Virus record (IMG/VR): IMGVR_UViG_2531839180_000006 | Length of the DNA stretch: 47,402 nucleotides | DNA from: a virus | Lineage: Duplodnaviria > Heunggongvirae > Uroviricota > Caudoviricetes | Direction: 5' to 3' (one strand) | Shown: positions 1 through 42,603 of the stretch, in pieces | Numbering within the stretch: the stretch's first letter is position 1 | Layout of the letters: the number at the start of each line of letters is the position of its first letter | The notes under the pieces: model-generated | Told to the model about the DNA's origin: nothing | The model's database searches: none | What the model saw: the letters and a program-made list of their open reading frames with translations, nothing else | Program-made: the position numbers and the translations under genes

Positions 1-235
1 TCAATAAATCCCATCATTGCGATCAACCTCATCCTTAACCATTGATGCGAGCAGTTCTTCCAGTTTCTGCGCTGACAGCTTTACCTGGTGATCTTCAGCA
101 TCTTCCCGGGCTATTGTGGTTCGCGCAGTGGCTGATTTTGCTGACATCACCACAGGGGGCAGACGGACCATTGAACCAGGGCCTCCGGAACAAATAAGGG
201 CAAAAATAACAACCACTATCGAAAGCTCACAAACT

Positions 236-406
236 AACCGCAGCACGTTCCTGCATACGACGTGTCTGCGGCATAATCCCAATGATTACTCCCTGACAGG
301 ATTTGCAGGCCACTCAATATCAGGTGCAGTTGATGTATCAACACGATTCAACAATACCCGATATTTATTCCATGCCTCCAGCAACGATCTTTCTTCCTCC
401 GTTGCG
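236..406. repeat. Direct repeat copy 1 (~170 bp): 3' end of tfa plus a hairpin; ~85-90% identical to 1286..1456
   Basis: By-eye alignment of 236-406 with 1286-1456 (shared 'ccgcagcacgttc...cataatcccaatgattactccctgacagg...'). Confidence 0.8.
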
Positions 407-555
407 ATTTCCAGATCTACAGCATCCTGCAGTGGCGCAATATACTCACTGAATTCCTGGATGTAGAACTGTGTGGTGACGGTCTTCCAGCCATTCGGCT
501 CCTGCTGTATCGAAGCATACCAGGCTATTTCAATATCGCTATGCTGCGGCAGCAT
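286..555 (-). CDS. tfa: Tail fiber assembly protein (Tfa) homolog, C-terminal half only (89 aa); possibly a truncated remnant
   Basis: C-terminus '[46 protein letters not shown]' matches lambda Tfa C-terminus; SD AAGGGG before ATG; N-terminal half of a full Tfa is missing. Confidence 0.65.
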
Positions 556-623
556 TTAACCCCTTGTAATTCATCGCCATAATTGATTTAATTCACAAAT
601 AAAACTATAACATGGTGAAATTA

Positions 624-1280
624 ATGAAAAAAAACACAGATGATGGGGCTAAAATTTACACACCACTTACCCTAAAGCTTTATGACTGGTGGGTTTTGGG
701 AGTATCAAATCGGCTTGCATGGGGATGTCCTACAAAGGAACACCTTCTTCCACACTTTCTGGAACATTTAGGTAACAACCATCTGGATATTGGTGTTGGA
801 ACTGGGTTTTACCTTACTCACGTACCTGAGAGTAGTCTGATATCTTTAATGGATTTGAACGAAGCTAGCCTGAACGCGGCATCTACAAGGGCTGGGGAAT
901 CAAAAATTAAACATAAAATTAGCCATGATGTTTTTGAACCTTATCCCGCGACGTTACATGGTCAATTTGATTCCATTTCCATGTTTTACCTTCTTCACTG
1001 CCTGCCTGGAAATATATCTACAAAAAGCTGTGTAATACGCAATGCGGCGCAGGCCTTAACTGACGATGGAACTCTATACGGAGCCACAATTCTTGGCGAT
1101 GGAGTTGTGCACAATAGCTTCGGTCAAAAACTGATGCGCATTTACAATCAGAAAGGCATCTTTTCAAACACAAAAGATTCCGAAGAAGGCTTAACACATA
1201 TACTCTCAGAGCATTTCGAGAATGTTAAAACCAAGGTTCAAGGTACTGTAGTAATGTTTTCCGCTTCAGGGAAAAAATAG
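624..1280 (+). CDS. Class I SAM-dependent methyltransferase (cargo gene; alternative start at 612)
   Basis: Motif I 'LDIGVGTG' in a Rossmann-like context; AT-rich relative to flanking phage genes; opposite strand to tail genes. Confidence 0.7.
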   Translation: MKKNTDDGAKIYTPLTLKLYDWWVLGVSNRLAWGCPTKEHLLPHFLEHLGNNHLDIGVGTGFYLTHVPESSLISLMDLNEASLNAASTRAGESKIKHKISHDVFEPYPATLHGQFDSISMFYLLHCLPGNISTKSCVIRNAAQALTDDGTLYGATILGDGVVHNSFGQKLMRIYNQKGIFSNTKDSEEGLTHILSEHFENVKTKVQGTVVMFSASGKK

Positions 1281-1285
1281 CATCC

Positions 1286-1456
1286 AACCGCAGCACGTTC
1301 TTGCTTAAGACGTGCTGCGGCATAATCCCAATGATTACTCCCTGACAGGGTTCACAGGCCACTCAATATCAGGTGCAGTTGATGTATCAACACGGTTCAG
1401 CAACACCCGATACTTTTTCCAGGCTTCCCGCAACGAGGTTTCTTCCTCCGTTGCAT
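1286..1456. repeat. Direct repeat copy 2 (tfa 3' end plus hairpin)
   Basis: Near-identical to 236-406 in the same orientation. Confidence 0.8.
1288..1320. terminator. Hairpin (11-bp perfect stem CCGCAGCACGT/ACGTGCTGCGG) between convergent methyltransferase and tfa fragment; possible bidirectional terminator
   Basis: Perfect inverted repeat read directly; T6 run on minus strand ~10 nt downstream. Confidence 0.4.
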
Positions 1457-1463
1457 ATACAGC
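1335..1463 (-). pseudogene. tfa 3' fragment (42 codons of Tfa C-terminus, preceded by in-frame stop, no start codon)
   Basis: Minus-strand translation gives '...[37 protein letters not shown]' bounded upstream by TGA at 1464-1466. Confidence 0.6.
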
Positions 1464-1790
1464 TCACCTTTTTTCACCCACGATTAACCAACAGCCAGAC
1501 CAGCAGACACGCCACCACCGGCACAGCAAAATCCATCAGGCTTGCCACATCCCACACGCGTGGATCAAAACCGCCCCACCACGGCATATTCATACGCTTG
1601 CCATGTCCGAACATTTCAATCCAGCGATATTATGCCTGGGGTGTTCAAGCGCAATGAAGTACGTATTGTATCTTCGCGATTTTTTATAGGCTAATTGACG
1701 CGCAATTCTGAGCGGGGAGCGCACAATCAAACAGCACAGAATGGATCGCTGATATTTATCCTTTTGTCGGTTTATCAAACAACAAGAGAG

Positions 1791-3620
1791 TCAATAGCGG
1801 ATTGTCCCTACATCCATTTCTGGCGAATCCACTAACCAGAAATTATCTGGCTTTACAGCCAGAATGATCCAGGCAGTGTTTGTTGTTGATGACCAGGAAG
1901 GCAGCACATCGTATGCCGGGTCATCGCAAGAATCACGATAACCGTACTCATTAAAAAGTGGAGCCATTGCTGCCACAAGATTCACCGCATTCAGCTCATT
2001 ACCCAGCTTGCGCTCAAAAAGTGCCACACCTGCCGTTCCTTCCACCCACACGCCACGGCTGTGACCACTATAACCATAATCAGGGTGGTACGGTGTGTAA
2101 CCCGTGGTTTCCCTCGTACCAAATAAAAAACGCCCCATATATTTTCGGCACTTAGCCGCTTTCTCAGCATCAATATTGGCAACAAACAATCCGCCCCAGG
2201 AAGACTGATCCAGCGCCGCTGCGTTGTCATAGTGGGTTGAATGAACCCCCTGTCGAAATCGGCCTTCATCTTCCACCCACAGACCTCTGATGATGCTCTT
2301 TGCCAGCCTGTCAGCCCGCTCACTGAAACCGTCAAATCCCAGCCGTCCCATCAGTTCAAACAAAAACCAGATATCAACGTTATGCTCCAGTGCGCACCAT
2401 TCGGCGACAAAAGTTTCATCAAAATTGCCGTCCACATAACGCCCCTGCCCCCCTTTATACAGGCCTTCACGCAGGTCGCCTGGTGTGCTCACCAGAAAAG
2501 TATCCAGCCAGGCAATGCCTGCCAATAGCTTTTCTCTGACCCGCGCAGTCTGAGTACCGTCCGGATACTTCTCCAGATAGAAAGCAAGAGCATAATAAAC
2601 CCATGCCGCATTGCCCAAGCGGTAATAGGTACGCGGTGACATGGCAGACAGCCTGTTAACAAAAAACTTTACTCCACCGTTTTCATCAACAAGCGCACAC
2701 AAGCCCGCAACGTATCTTTCTACAGCCTCATGTCGCTGAACCATCAACGCCAGTGCTGCCAGCGCCTGGTCATACGTGTAACACCGATCTTTCATCACCC
2801 TGATCACTTCGGGGTCTGCGTCCTCCGGCATCCAGTAGCTACGAATGAGCAGTGGAAACTCCAGCGTTGTGATCCACGCATTATCCTCAATCCGAATAAG
2901 ACGAAACTGTTTTGCTCCCGTCCAGCAACGTCTGAAATAGAAAGTTCCGTCACTATTCAAATTAGCGTCGCCGTTAAAATACTCTCCGGTTGTATAAGCA
3001 TACATATCGACTTTATACTTTTCAGGTTCAGGAATATCGCAATATCCGTTAACTGCACCGACATAATTAAAATCGATATTTTCTTTTATTTTTAAAGATA
3101 TTGATGTATTAACAACCTCGGGTTGTTCCAGTTTTAACATTGCAGTAGTGCAACGACTCACGATGTCGTCAAAGTTCTCAAAGCGCAAACCGGGAAAACT
3201 ATCGGCTATTCCCTGCATTTCAGACAGTAACGCTTCTGCCCTTTTTGTCGCTGATATTGCCACATCTGCACTTCGTTGCGCCTGACTTGTCAAATCTTCA
3301 AATCGTTTCACCACATCTGGCTTCAGGTCGCCTTCGTCGGGGGCAGTCAGAAAATCATTCAGCGTACCTGGTCTGGAACCTTCATAAACGGTAATGGTCC
3401 CGGCATGTGAAGGCGGAAAACCTTCAACCAACAGGGTGACGCTGTACTGACCATACTCAACATCCATGCTGTAACGTCCAGCTTCATCCGGATTTTCTGA
3501 GGCCACCGTGTTCACCACAACCGTTGTGCTGTTACGTTTTGCCTTCAGTTGAATAGTGCAGTTCTGTATTGGTTTTCCCGCACCATCTTTCAGCACACCT
3601 GAGATTTTTACTGCTGCCAT
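1791..3620 (-). CDS. stf: Side tail fiber protein: lambda Stf-like N-terminal anchor (~90 aa) fused to a large non-lambda C-terminal domain
   Basis: N-terminus 'MAAVKISGVLKDGAGKPIQNCTIQLKAKRNSTTVVVNTV...GTLNDFL' matches lambda Stf N-terminus; the remainder lacks lambda Stf Ala/Ser-rich repeats. Confidence 0.8.
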   Translation of the reverse strand: MAAVKISGVLKDGAGKPIQNCTIQLKAKRNSTTVVVNTVASENPDEAGRYSMDVEYGQYSVTLLVEGFPPSHAGTITVYEGSRPGTLNDFLTAPDEGDLKPDVVKRFEDLTSQAQRSADVAISATKRAEALLSEMQGIADSFPGLRFENFDDIVSRCTTAMLKLEQPEVVNTSISLKIKENIDFNYVGAVNGYCDIPEPEKYKVDMYAYTTGEYFNGDANLNSDGTFYFRRCWTGAKQFRLIRIEDNAWITTLEFPLLIRSYWMPEDADPEVIRVMKDRCYTYDQALAALALMVQRHEAVERYVAGLCALVDENGGVKFFVNRLSAMSPRTYYRLGNAAWVYYALAFYLEKYPDGTQTARVREKLLAGIAWLDTFLVSTPGDLREGLYKGGQGRYVDGNFDETFVAEWCALEHNVDIWFLFELMGRLGFDGFSERADRLAKSIIRGLWVEDEGRFRQGVHSTHYDNAAALDQSSWGGLFVANIDAEKAAKCRKYMGRFLFGTRETTGYTPYHPDYGYSGHSRGVWVEGTAGVALFERKLGNELNAVNLVAAMAPLFNEYGYRDSCDDPAYDVLPSWSSTTNTAWIILAVKPDNFWLVDSPEMDVGTIRY

Positions 3621-27314: not shown

Positions 27315-27650
27315 ATGAAGTGGATTGTGATTGATACAGTTATCCAGCCATCATGCGGAATATCTTTTTCAGTCATATGGAGTAAAATAAAATTAATAAT
27401 CTGGTATCAATCGGATGCTTTCTTACCTCCTGAAAGTATATTTACACTGACTCACACAGGCATCATGCTCAATAACAAAGTGCTACCTGTAACCATTTAC
27501 AACGTAGTACCATTCAATAAAACATTCTGGAATTTAATCAAAAACAGCCAGGAATGCCCTACAAATACAGATAACGTATTGAATGAATGCTTTAATAACC
27601 GTTGCACTCTGCAAATATGTCCTTATGGACTAAAACAACAAAGTCCATAA
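27315..27650 (+). CDS. Hypothetical AT-rich cargo protein (111 aa, Cys-rich C-terminus), anti-sense to the late operon
   Basis: ORF with SD AAGGAAAG 6 nt before ATG; preceded by ~245-bp very AT-rich region; no recognisable family. Confidence 0.5.
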
Positions 27651-27685
27651 GGAGTTTACTCACATCTGACAAAATCAATATAAAC

Positions 27686-27705
27686 AGCCCCTCCGGAGAG
27701 GGGCT
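27686..27705. terminator. Perfect hairpin AGCCCCTC-CGGA-GAGGGGCT downstream of the 111-aa ORF and of the tRNA cluster; possible bidirectional terminator
   Basis: 8-bp perfect GC-rich stem with tetraloop read directly. Confidence 0.4.
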
Positions 27706-27939
27706 GGAGAGTGGCGCTATGTGCCATTGCATGGTGCCGGGTGCCTCCCGGTGAATTCAGTACCAGCACCTGAATCCGCGATTATCCCATATACCTACTC
27801 GCTGATTGCCCCTCCGCACAGGGGGATTCACCATGCCAGTTTCTTTTAACAAACTCCCCGCAAACCAGACAACAGTCAACCGCCTGAATTGTGAGACATT
27901 TAAAAAAAGCCCGCAAAAGCGAGCCAAGGAAAATAAGTG

Positions 27940-28016
27940 TGGCGCGTTGTACTGGATTCGAACCAGTGACCGATTGCTTAGAAGGCAATTGCTCTGTCCG
28001 GCTGAGCTAACAACGC
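27940..28016 (-). tRNA. argO: tRNA-Arg (anticodon UCU), argO-like
   Basis: Minus strand GCGTTGTTAGCTCAGCCGGACAGAGCAATTGCCTTCTAAGCAATCGGTCACTGGTTCGAATCCAGTACAACGCGCCA folds as a canonical cloverleaf (7-bp acceptor, TTCGAAT T-loop, CCA). Confidence 0.85.
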
Positions 28017-28029
28017 AGGATACAGATAA

Positions 28030-28106
28030 TGGACCGCCTTCGGGGACCCGAACTCCGCGCAACCAGCTTCGAAAGCTGGCGCTCTTTCCTGATGAGCTAA
28101 TGGCGG
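28030..28106 (-). tRNA. argN: tRNA-like, probable tRNA-Arg (anticodon UCG by eye), argN-like; non-canonical pairs, possibly degenerate
   Basis: CCGCCATTAGCTCATCAGGAAAGAGCGCCAGCTTTCGAAGCTGGTTGCGCGGAGTTCGGGTCCCCGAAGGCGGTCCA: cloverleaf possible but A-A mismatch in acceptor stem, A-C mismatch in T-stem, G at position 58. Confidence 0.55.
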
Positions 28107-28113
28107 TATGTGA

Positions 28114-28189
28114 TGGTGGCCCTTGCTGGATTTGAACCAGCGACCTGGCGATTATGAGTCGCTCGCTCTCACCACTGAGCTAAAGGGCC
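28114..28189 (-). tRNA. ileZ: tRNA with anticodon CAU (Ile2/lysidine type, ileZ-like; formally Met/Ile)
   Basis: GGCCCTTTAGCTCAGTGGTGAGAGCGAGCGACTCATAATCGCCAGGTCGCTGGTTCAAATCCAGCAAGGGCCACCA; closely resembles E. coli tRNA-Ile2; perfect acceptor stem, TTCAAAT T-loop. Confidence 0.85.
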
Positions 28190-28238
28190 GGGAGCAGAAT
28201 AATAATGGTGCGTAATTAATTCTGCAATCTCATCCGTT

Positions 28239-34443: not shown

Positions 34444-34599
34444 TTACTCTCTAGATTCGTAGTCTACGAAAACAGCAACCTCCGTCTGGCCGGTTCGGAT
34501 TCGTACCTCGCAGAGGTCTTTCCTCGTTACCAGTGCCGTCACTATGACGGTTAAACAGATGACGATAAGGGCGATTAACATCGCCTTTTGCTGCTTCAT
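34444..34599 (-). CDS. hok: Hok-family type I toxin (HokD/RelF-like membrane peptide)
   Basis: 'MKQQKAMLIALIVICLTVIVTALVTRKDLCEVRIRTGQTEVAVF' matches Hok/Gef family; AAGGAG SD; in-frame upstream extension (to 34656) may be mok-like. Confidence 0.85.
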   Translation of the reverse strand: MKQQKAMLIALIVICLTVIVTALVTRKDLCEVRIRTGQTEVAVFVDYESRE

Positions 34600-35025
34600 A
34601 GCCTGCTTCTCCTTGCCTTTCGGCACGTAAGAGGCTAACCTACATTTGTGAGACATAGATTGGGCCTCAGATTAATGTTAAGCGTCTTGCAGGACGCGTA
34701 ATGTTAACTGGGGCTTTTCTCTATCTGCCTTTTGGTGTTCATGCCTGAGACAGATAGCCTCAAGCACCCGCAGCAATTCTACTTAACTCTCCTTTTCCCG
34801 CAAACCGTTTTTATCCTCAACGTAAATTTTACCAATATTGCCTAACACATCTCCCTTGCCCTGACGATGCTTACCTCTTTACACAGACCCAAATTTATGT
34901 ATTATCTTTTACAAACAAGCAGTTAAGAGCTATCGGTGGGTGAGTTCGCCCTGCGGTAGCTTTTCCTTTATGCATTGCATCTATTTATGTTCTAGTATAT
35001 TCCTATATGTTCAAAAGGACTTTTC

Positions 35026-42086: not shown

Positions 42087-42603
42087 AAACACTCCTTTTT
42101 ACTGTGGAAAGCTAAATCATATCACGGTCTATGAAGTAAAAAGTGAATTTCGTGATGCGGTGAATGCGGCTCAGCGCACGCAGAACAGTTAAAAACACAA
42201 GTGTTATGGGTGAATCATCCGGCGTTAATTGTTAACTGGTTAACGTCACCTGGAGGCACCAGGCACCGCATCACAAAGTTCACTTAGGTGATGAAAGGTA
42301 GAGAAAATGTTGAATGTAGCTATTGAAAACCAGAACGGGTGGAATTATAGTGCACCTGCACCTCATAAAACGGGTGCCGGGCGTGGAAACCCGATGTTCA
42401 CTAACGCGCATAATCGCGCTCAGGCGGTTTTTTTATGCGTAATGCACAGCCACATTCAGATTATGGTGGGACGTGCAGGGCAGCCGCAAGGCTGGCCGGG
42501 TTCGTTAGTGACCGGTATTTCCACCCCTGTACGTCTCACCACCCTTATGGTCGTGGAAAACCTTGGTGGTGAGTTAATCAAATTCACTAACGAGGCTGCT
42601 ATC

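Follow-up and report, generated by a model that had tools for sequence, protein, structure and literature searches.

The DNA analyzed here, referred to below as the window, is a stretch of 47,402 nucleotides (47.4 kb), in which ARAGORN finds exactly three tRNA genes, all of them on the minus strand. A preliminary description of the sequence had placed three minus-strand tRNAs with the anticodons CAU, UCG and UCU at positions 27940-28189, and the gene limits returned by ARAGORN are the same. Membership in the Rfam tRNA family (RF00005) is defined by a gathering score of 29 bits, which all three genes exceed. The spacers between them are only 7 and 13 nt long, and the CCA end is encoded in each gene. 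Together with the signals that flank them, the genes are arranged as follows.

28199-28227, minus strand: putative pT-like sigma-70 promoter, TTGCAG, 17-nt spacer, TATTAT, ending 9 nt before ileZ
28114-28189, minus strand: tRNA 1, ileZ, ARAGORN anticodon CAT, Rfam RF00005 72.5 bits, E=4.7e-14
28030-28106, minus strand: tRNA 2, argN, ARAGORN anticodon TCG, Rfam RF00005 42.9 bits, E=6.8e-6
27940-28016, minus strand: tRNA 3, argO, ARAGORN anticodon TCT, Rfam RF00005 70.1 bits, E=2.2e-13
27900-27925, minus strand: intrinsic terminator after argO from a terminator scan, GGCTCGC-TTTT-GCGGGCT (hairpin 27925-27908) followed by a T run
27676-27865, minus strand: full-length STnc100 (PasD-related) prophage sRNA, Rfam 132 bits; carries a terminator of its own and immediately follows that of the tRNA operon

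Given these Rfam E-values, the three tRNAs are not chance matches. The cluster also recurs in thousands of genomes and is annotated as tRNA genes, so that an explanation of the tRNA-like sequences by chance or artefact has practically no probability left. Over 651 nt that include the cluster, the window and the chromosome of E. coli strain E275a are 100% identical, and the cluster is already known, its exact sequence being present in RefSeq with all three genes annotated. Of 5,426 complete E. coli genomes, 3,337 contain matches to the cluster; the median number of sites in a genome is two, and the copies total about 10,000. At 90-95% identity the cluster also has matches in 289 records of the phage collection; nearly all of these are Stx2-converting phages, and their genes are annotated as ileZ, argN and argO. 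The earlier suggestion that the cluster mirrors ileZ-argN-argO of Stx-type lambdoid phages agrees with these data, as the annotated cluster of Stx2 phages (933W/Sakai type; e.g. AP012536 and OP797663) is 93-95% identical to that of the window over 330 nt, and the two agree in gene order and in anticodons (CAU, UCG, UCU). All the defining features of the ileZ-argN-argO cluster are present except for a downstream stx, which defines the Stx-converting subset only. A gapped pattern scan of genome contigs was also tried and was discarded, since the pattern was too generic and matched tRNA arrays of Bacillus, Thermus and other unrelated bacteria. We regard it as practically certain that the cluster is the ileZ-argN-argO tRNA operon of a lambdoid E. 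coli prophage. The fuller reading, in which this operon contains a derived and probably impaired argN, is in our judgement very probable.

According to the RefSeq annotation of the identical region, the tRNA genes are preceded, in this order, by genes for a DUF968 protein, RusA, antitermination protein Q, a Ser/Thr kinase, a PP2C phosphatase and a DNA methyltransferase, and are followed by IraM (on the opposite strand), a holin, a lysozyme, an Rz-type lysis protein and the terminase. The operon thus follows the methyltransferase gene and lies in the interval that separates the antiterminator gene Q from the lysis cassette. The ORF between the tRNA/sRNA region and the lysis cassette (27315-27650, plus strand, 111 aa) is the one annotated in RefSeq as the anti-adapter IraM, of the RpoS stabiliser family; six of its 111 codons are ATA.

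The cluster had been assigned to the late region. With respect to position, between Q and the lysis genes, this assignment stands. With respect to transcription it needs refining, since the tRNA operon has its own conserved promoter-like site and terminator and is therefore not simply part of the late transcript. In a three-way alignment the pT-like hexamers align one for one with those of the feature annotated as "pT; putative tRNA promoter" in phage 06-3462. In the transferred annotation that this phage carries, pT lies 9 nt ahead of ileZ and argO is followed by a rho-independent terminator, and the terminator of the window is conserved with the "possible rho-independent terminator" annotated there. 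A simple promoter scan found no site, as pT, with 8 of 12 consensus positions, falls below its threshold; the pT-like site is identified by conservation and by prior annotation, which suggest that it may have promoter activity. The operon would then be transcribed from pT, probably also in lysogens, and read-through after induction may boost its transcription.

The stx genes are absent from the prophage, in which the argO terminator is followed by STnc100 and the IraM-like ORF. In the Stx2a phage L001 stx2AB lies between argO and STnc100, whereas in the window the argO terminator directly adjoins STnc100; the window therefore looks like the same site minus the toxin cassette. One option for the RNA in this position was that STnc100 is a short pR'-tR' late leader RNA, with the tRNAs upstream of the late promoter. 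This reading was rejected because STnc100 is located downstream of stx2B in Stx2 phages. Other RNAs detected by Rfam in the window are a hok/sok-type antitoxin RNA (34594-34769, minus strand, 120 bits) and, adjacent to each other on the plus strand, isrK and a C4 antisense RNA (P1/P7-type immunity RNA) at 42358-42434 and 42459-42546 (62 and 80 bits, respectively).

The first gene of the operon, ileZ, is labelled "Met" by ARAGORN, a label that mirrors the CAU anticodon only. The preliminary description had called this tRNA Ile2-like, and the comparison with the host tRNA upholds it: ileZ and host ileX agree at 68 of 76 positions and have the same anticodon loop, direct reading shows that it carries C4-G69 and C5-G68, and RefSeq labels the sequence identical to ileZ as tRNA-Ile. 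The ileX sequence used is 100% identical to chromosomal tRNA-Ile in more than 5,000 genome records. The pairs C4-G69 and C5-G68 are acceptor-stem determinants for the lysidine synthetase TilS. Judged by its sequence, ileZ would be modified by TilS as a tRNA of the Ile2 type and would read AUA after lysidine modification. Among the differences between the two genes, ileZ has A27·C43 where ileX has G27·U43, and T6-A67 where ileX has C6-G67. The A27·C43 opposition, which is located at the top of the anticodon stem, is kept in essentially all ileZ copies and is therefore a feature of the gene and not damage. The exact window allele of ileZ is found in 2,776 E. coli records among the complete genomes.

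We took a cloverleaf to be intact when all stems are paired and T54-T55-C56, A58 and G53-C61 are present. The scripted check shows that argO, the third gene, has an intact cloverleaf, with every stem paired and all checked invariant bases in place. The identity elements of ArgRS are A20, C35 and either G36 or U36. Of these argO has A20, C35 and U36, and its discriminator is G73. The host tRNA-Arg(UCU), argU, has the same UCU anticodon loop as argO and also the same D and T loops; in the version of argU used for the comparison, the two differ at 21 of 77 positions. The exact argO allele of the window is present in 1,336 E. coli records among the complete genomes, and its product would read AGA and AGG. 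In three loci (L198, L175 and L135) only the first 42 nt of argO are left, up to just beyond the anticodon loop, and unrelated sequence follows. The same break is seen in six of the loci that were collected through the neighbouring methylase, as described below (e.g. L286, L299, L308, L309 and L315). It is a recombination or insertion breakpoint inside the gene.

The codons that such tRNAs would serve were counted with the same crude ORF caller in the window and in 50 kb of the core chromosome of a host strain. Per 1,000 codons, the window has 11.6 ATA (core 5.0), 8.2 AGA (core 2.5), 6.2 AGG (core 1.1), 6.8 CGA (core 2.7) and 13.0 CGG (core 6.7), so that all five codons are 1.9-5.6 times commoner in the window, as expected from the earlier proposal that the cluster supplies rare-codon tRNAs. 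Rare-codon supply is the standard account of why phages carry tRNAs, and it is cited for Stx2 phages as well (PMC7946995). The enrichment agrees with this explanation as a correlation and is not a demonstration of it.

The middle gene, argN, reads CCGCCAT-TA-GCTC-ATCAGGAAA-GAGC-G-CCAGC-TTTCGAA-GCTGG-TTGCG-CGGAG-TTCGGGT-CCCCG-AAGGCGG-TCCA. Three flaws had been noted in it, and both direct reading and the scripted cloverleaf check on the same allele find all of them: the acceptor stem contains the mismatch A6·A67, the T stem the mismatch A52·C62, and the T loop a G at position 58. At these three places the cloverleaf is not intact, which weakens the claim that argN is a working tRNA and leaves its homology to argN unaffected. 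The gene keeps the ArgRS elements A20, C35 and G36 and an intact anticodon arm, and its discriminator, U73, is atypical. In argN of the Stx2a phage L001 the corresponding part reads ...CGGGG-TTCGAGC-CCCCG-ATGGCGG, with G52-C62, A58 and A6-U67 all intact. The Rfam score is 42.9 bits for the window allele versus 55.9 bits for that of L001, and other intact alleles reach 56-59 bits. When the sequences are compared in this way, the three flaws of the window copy are derived relative to the intact allele of the Stx2 phages.

Plain minimum-free-energy folding does not discriminate between these alleles, as even ileZ and argO miss the cloverleaf optimum, and the energies were evaluated directly instead. 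Since such energies ignore tertiary contacts and modifications they are only indicative, and with this reading the cloverleaf of the window argN has -20.0 kcal/mol, compared with -28.3 to -31.3 kcal/mol in four alleles that lack the mismatches at A52 and A67. A register-shifted T hairpin, UUCGG-GUCC-CCGAA at argN positions 54-67, is predicted to be better than the cloverleaf of the window allele by 5.4 kcal/mol, and it is the derived A67 and G58 that create its pairs U54-A67 and G58-C63. In the other argN alleles evaluated the cloverleaf wins by 6-12 kcal/mol. Because the flaws weaken the cloverleaf and favour a misfolded T arm, the window argN is most likely poorly functional or a pseudogene; that this allele is really impaired, which is predicted from its sequence and from modelled energies, is a view towards which we lean with modest confidence.

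The exact argN allele of the window occurs in 560 E. coli records among the complete genomes and, being this common, is not strongly counter-selected; strains E275a, ATCC 35150 and PV15-279 are among its carriers. Of the deposited phage genomes 261 have an argN homologue, and the allele is present in none of these (best match 90.9%), an absence that may reflect sampling rather than phage viability, as the collection is dominated by Stx phages. The argN copies of the deposited phages differ from that of the window at 7-10 of 77 positions, which include the three structural defects.

Comparison with relatives bears out the suspicion, raised in the preliminary description, that the middle tRNA is degenerate. 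Two samples were drawn from IMG/VR. The first was collected with a gapped DNA pattern anchored in ileZ and argO and gave 117 full-length homologous clusters with 88 distinct sequences. In this sample the nucleotide diversity is 0.017 for ileZ, 0.048 for argO and 0.179 for argN, the last value being similar to those of the spacers and flanks (0.09-0.29), and the middle slot receives no ARAGORN call of a UCG tRNA in about one third of the clusters. Since such a pattern favours clusters in which ileZ and argO are conserved, the second sample took the neighbouring methylase protein as its anchor, which does not depend on the tRNAs, and gave 69 complete loci. Here ileZ is identical to that of the window in 67 of 69 loci. 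An argO-type third gene is present in 64 loci and is intact in about 57 of these, and the middle cloverleaf is intact in only about 26 of the 64, counts which do not represent independent events because the sampled loci are related and mosaic. The lesions of the middle gene in the same 64 loci include the triple defect of the window (14 loci), two acceptor-stem C·A mismatches together with T-loop changes (10 loci) and an anticodon arm swapped for unrelated sequence (11 loci), and a few loci show other lesions. All told, at least six structurally distinct kinds of lesion are found in the middle slot, against isolated singletons in ileZ. Across representative loci the Rfam score of ileZ is 72.5 bits in all tested and that of argO is 62-70 bits; for the middle element the score falls from 59 to 45 to 26 bits and finally to no match.

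Some of the middle slots are extensively rebuilt. In a common variant (L240 type; e.g. L238, L239, L215 and L153) the acceptor and D arms of argN are kept, the anticodon arm is GACGACACGATAACAGGGTTGTTGGTG and T54-T55 is changed to G-G, and these slots give no tRNA match at E<=10. A further locus, L223, has a hybrid slot with a replaced anticodon arm and an intact T arm. In five of the 69 methylase-anchored loci (L253, L263, L264, L265 and L317, at about 2600-2910 in each) the same methylase and an identical ileZ are followed by a different cassette, Lys(UUU)-Thr(UGU)-Gly(UCC) or Lys-Lys-Gly. The first tRNA of this alternative cassette matches the initial 27 nt of argN, in L253 and L317 at least, and this suggests that the tRNA genes may act as recombination joints.

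Among 38 distinct UCG-type argN alleles, pair-breaking variants were found in eight stem pairs and compensatory double changes in none of the stem pairs. The lack of compensatory changes gives no support for structural selection on argN, with the reservation that the divergence is too shallow to make this strong evidence against such selection. Taken together, the sequences indicate that constraint on the middle slot is probably relaxed across the family, and the decay of the window argN fits this pattern.

How the middle gene should be understood can be considered from more than one side. One explanation is that it is a fully working tRNA-Arg(UCG) whose deviations are tolerated, and which would provide a third useful decoder with an anticodon that the host lacks; host E. 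coli is not known to have a tRNA-Arg with a UCG anticodon. The gene is called a tRNA by ARAGORN, by RefSeq and by Rfam, where it scores well above the gathering threshold (42.9 versus 29 bits), and some tRNAs tolerate single mismatches in the acceptor or T stem. Its anticodon loop and the three ArgRS elements are retained, the CGA and CGG codons are enriched about 2-fold in the window, and the allele is widespread. Yet the three changes hit structurally critical positions and are all derived with respect to the intact Stx2-phage allele, the cloverleaf is less stable by about 8-11 kcal/mol with a competing hairpin being favoured, and the absence of the allele from the 261 phage genomes also counts against a working gene. 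In relatives, moreover, the slot has been disrupted independently in several other ways, with ileZ and argO remaining intact. With all of this in view, we consider a fully working argN in the window the less likely reading.

Another hypothesis is that the middle element has a role other than that of a tRNA, as an alternatively folded RNA, a spacer for processing or a decoy for nucleases that target tRNAs, and that its variability reflects diversifying selection and not decay. The new pairs formed by A67 and G58 belong to a 5-bp register-shifted hairpin that is predicted to be more stable than the cloverleaf, and the slot has repeatedly been remodelled by recombination, as the replaced anticodon arms and the Lys-like variants show. 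This complementarity, however, could be due to chance among three substitutions. There is also no covariation for any alternative structure, no associated protein or target was found, and the variants are heterogeneous and mostly destroy pairing, as neutral decay predicts. We therefore give this hypothesis very little weight. An equally improbable version of it would have the middle slot under repeated remodelling, for example in order to escape or decoy host nucleases that target tRNAs, with the window allele exapted as a non-tRNA RNA.

A derived and probably impaired argN between two sound neighbours thus remains the reading that we prefer. The genes ileZ and argO are conserved and are probably working rare-codon tRNAs, and they would supply decoders for codons that are 2-6 times commoner in the phage than in the host core genome. 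The tRNA encoded by argN (UCG) would be the decoder of CGA and CGG, and the window copy of it may be poorly folded and either weakly functional or dead. Within one operon, the decoders of AUA and AGA/AGG are almost invariant across thousands of prophages, and more than half of the sampled loci have a broken CGA/CGG decoder. That ileZ and argO are nearly invariant while argN is broken in several independent ways suggests that the phage or the lysogen draws a real benefit from ileZ and argO only. Decoding of CGA and CGG may not be limiting enough for argN to be maintained. One practical consequence is that automatic "tRNA-Arg" calls for argN may label copies that are non-functional. By itself the cluster does no more than confirm that the window is a lambdoid E. 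coli prophage whose stx position is unoccupied; the one addition, that argN decays and its neighbours do not, is a small comparative point.

The window shares with the known Stx2-phage cluster the DNA methylase gene upstream, the pT hexamers and the terminator. It differs in that the annotated cluster of the Stx2-phage records lies directly upstream of stx2A, whereas the window is without stx2AB and has the terminator and then STnc100 in this place; its Q gene is also of a different type, and kinase and phosphatase genes are located between Q and the methylase. Changes in the tRNA genes of such clusters have been noted before in genome comparisons, as a SNP in the "first tRNA-Arg" of clade 8 O157:H7 (PMC2858043) and as "tRNA-pseudo" calls in the tRNA clusters of stx2i prophages (PMC13641118). 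The stx2i prophage clusters and the window have in common that one tRNA is degraded and its neighbours are retained. Unlike the tRNA-pseudo genes of the Stx phage clusters, the argN of the window is called a tRNA by every tool used, and it carries point substitutions and no truncation.
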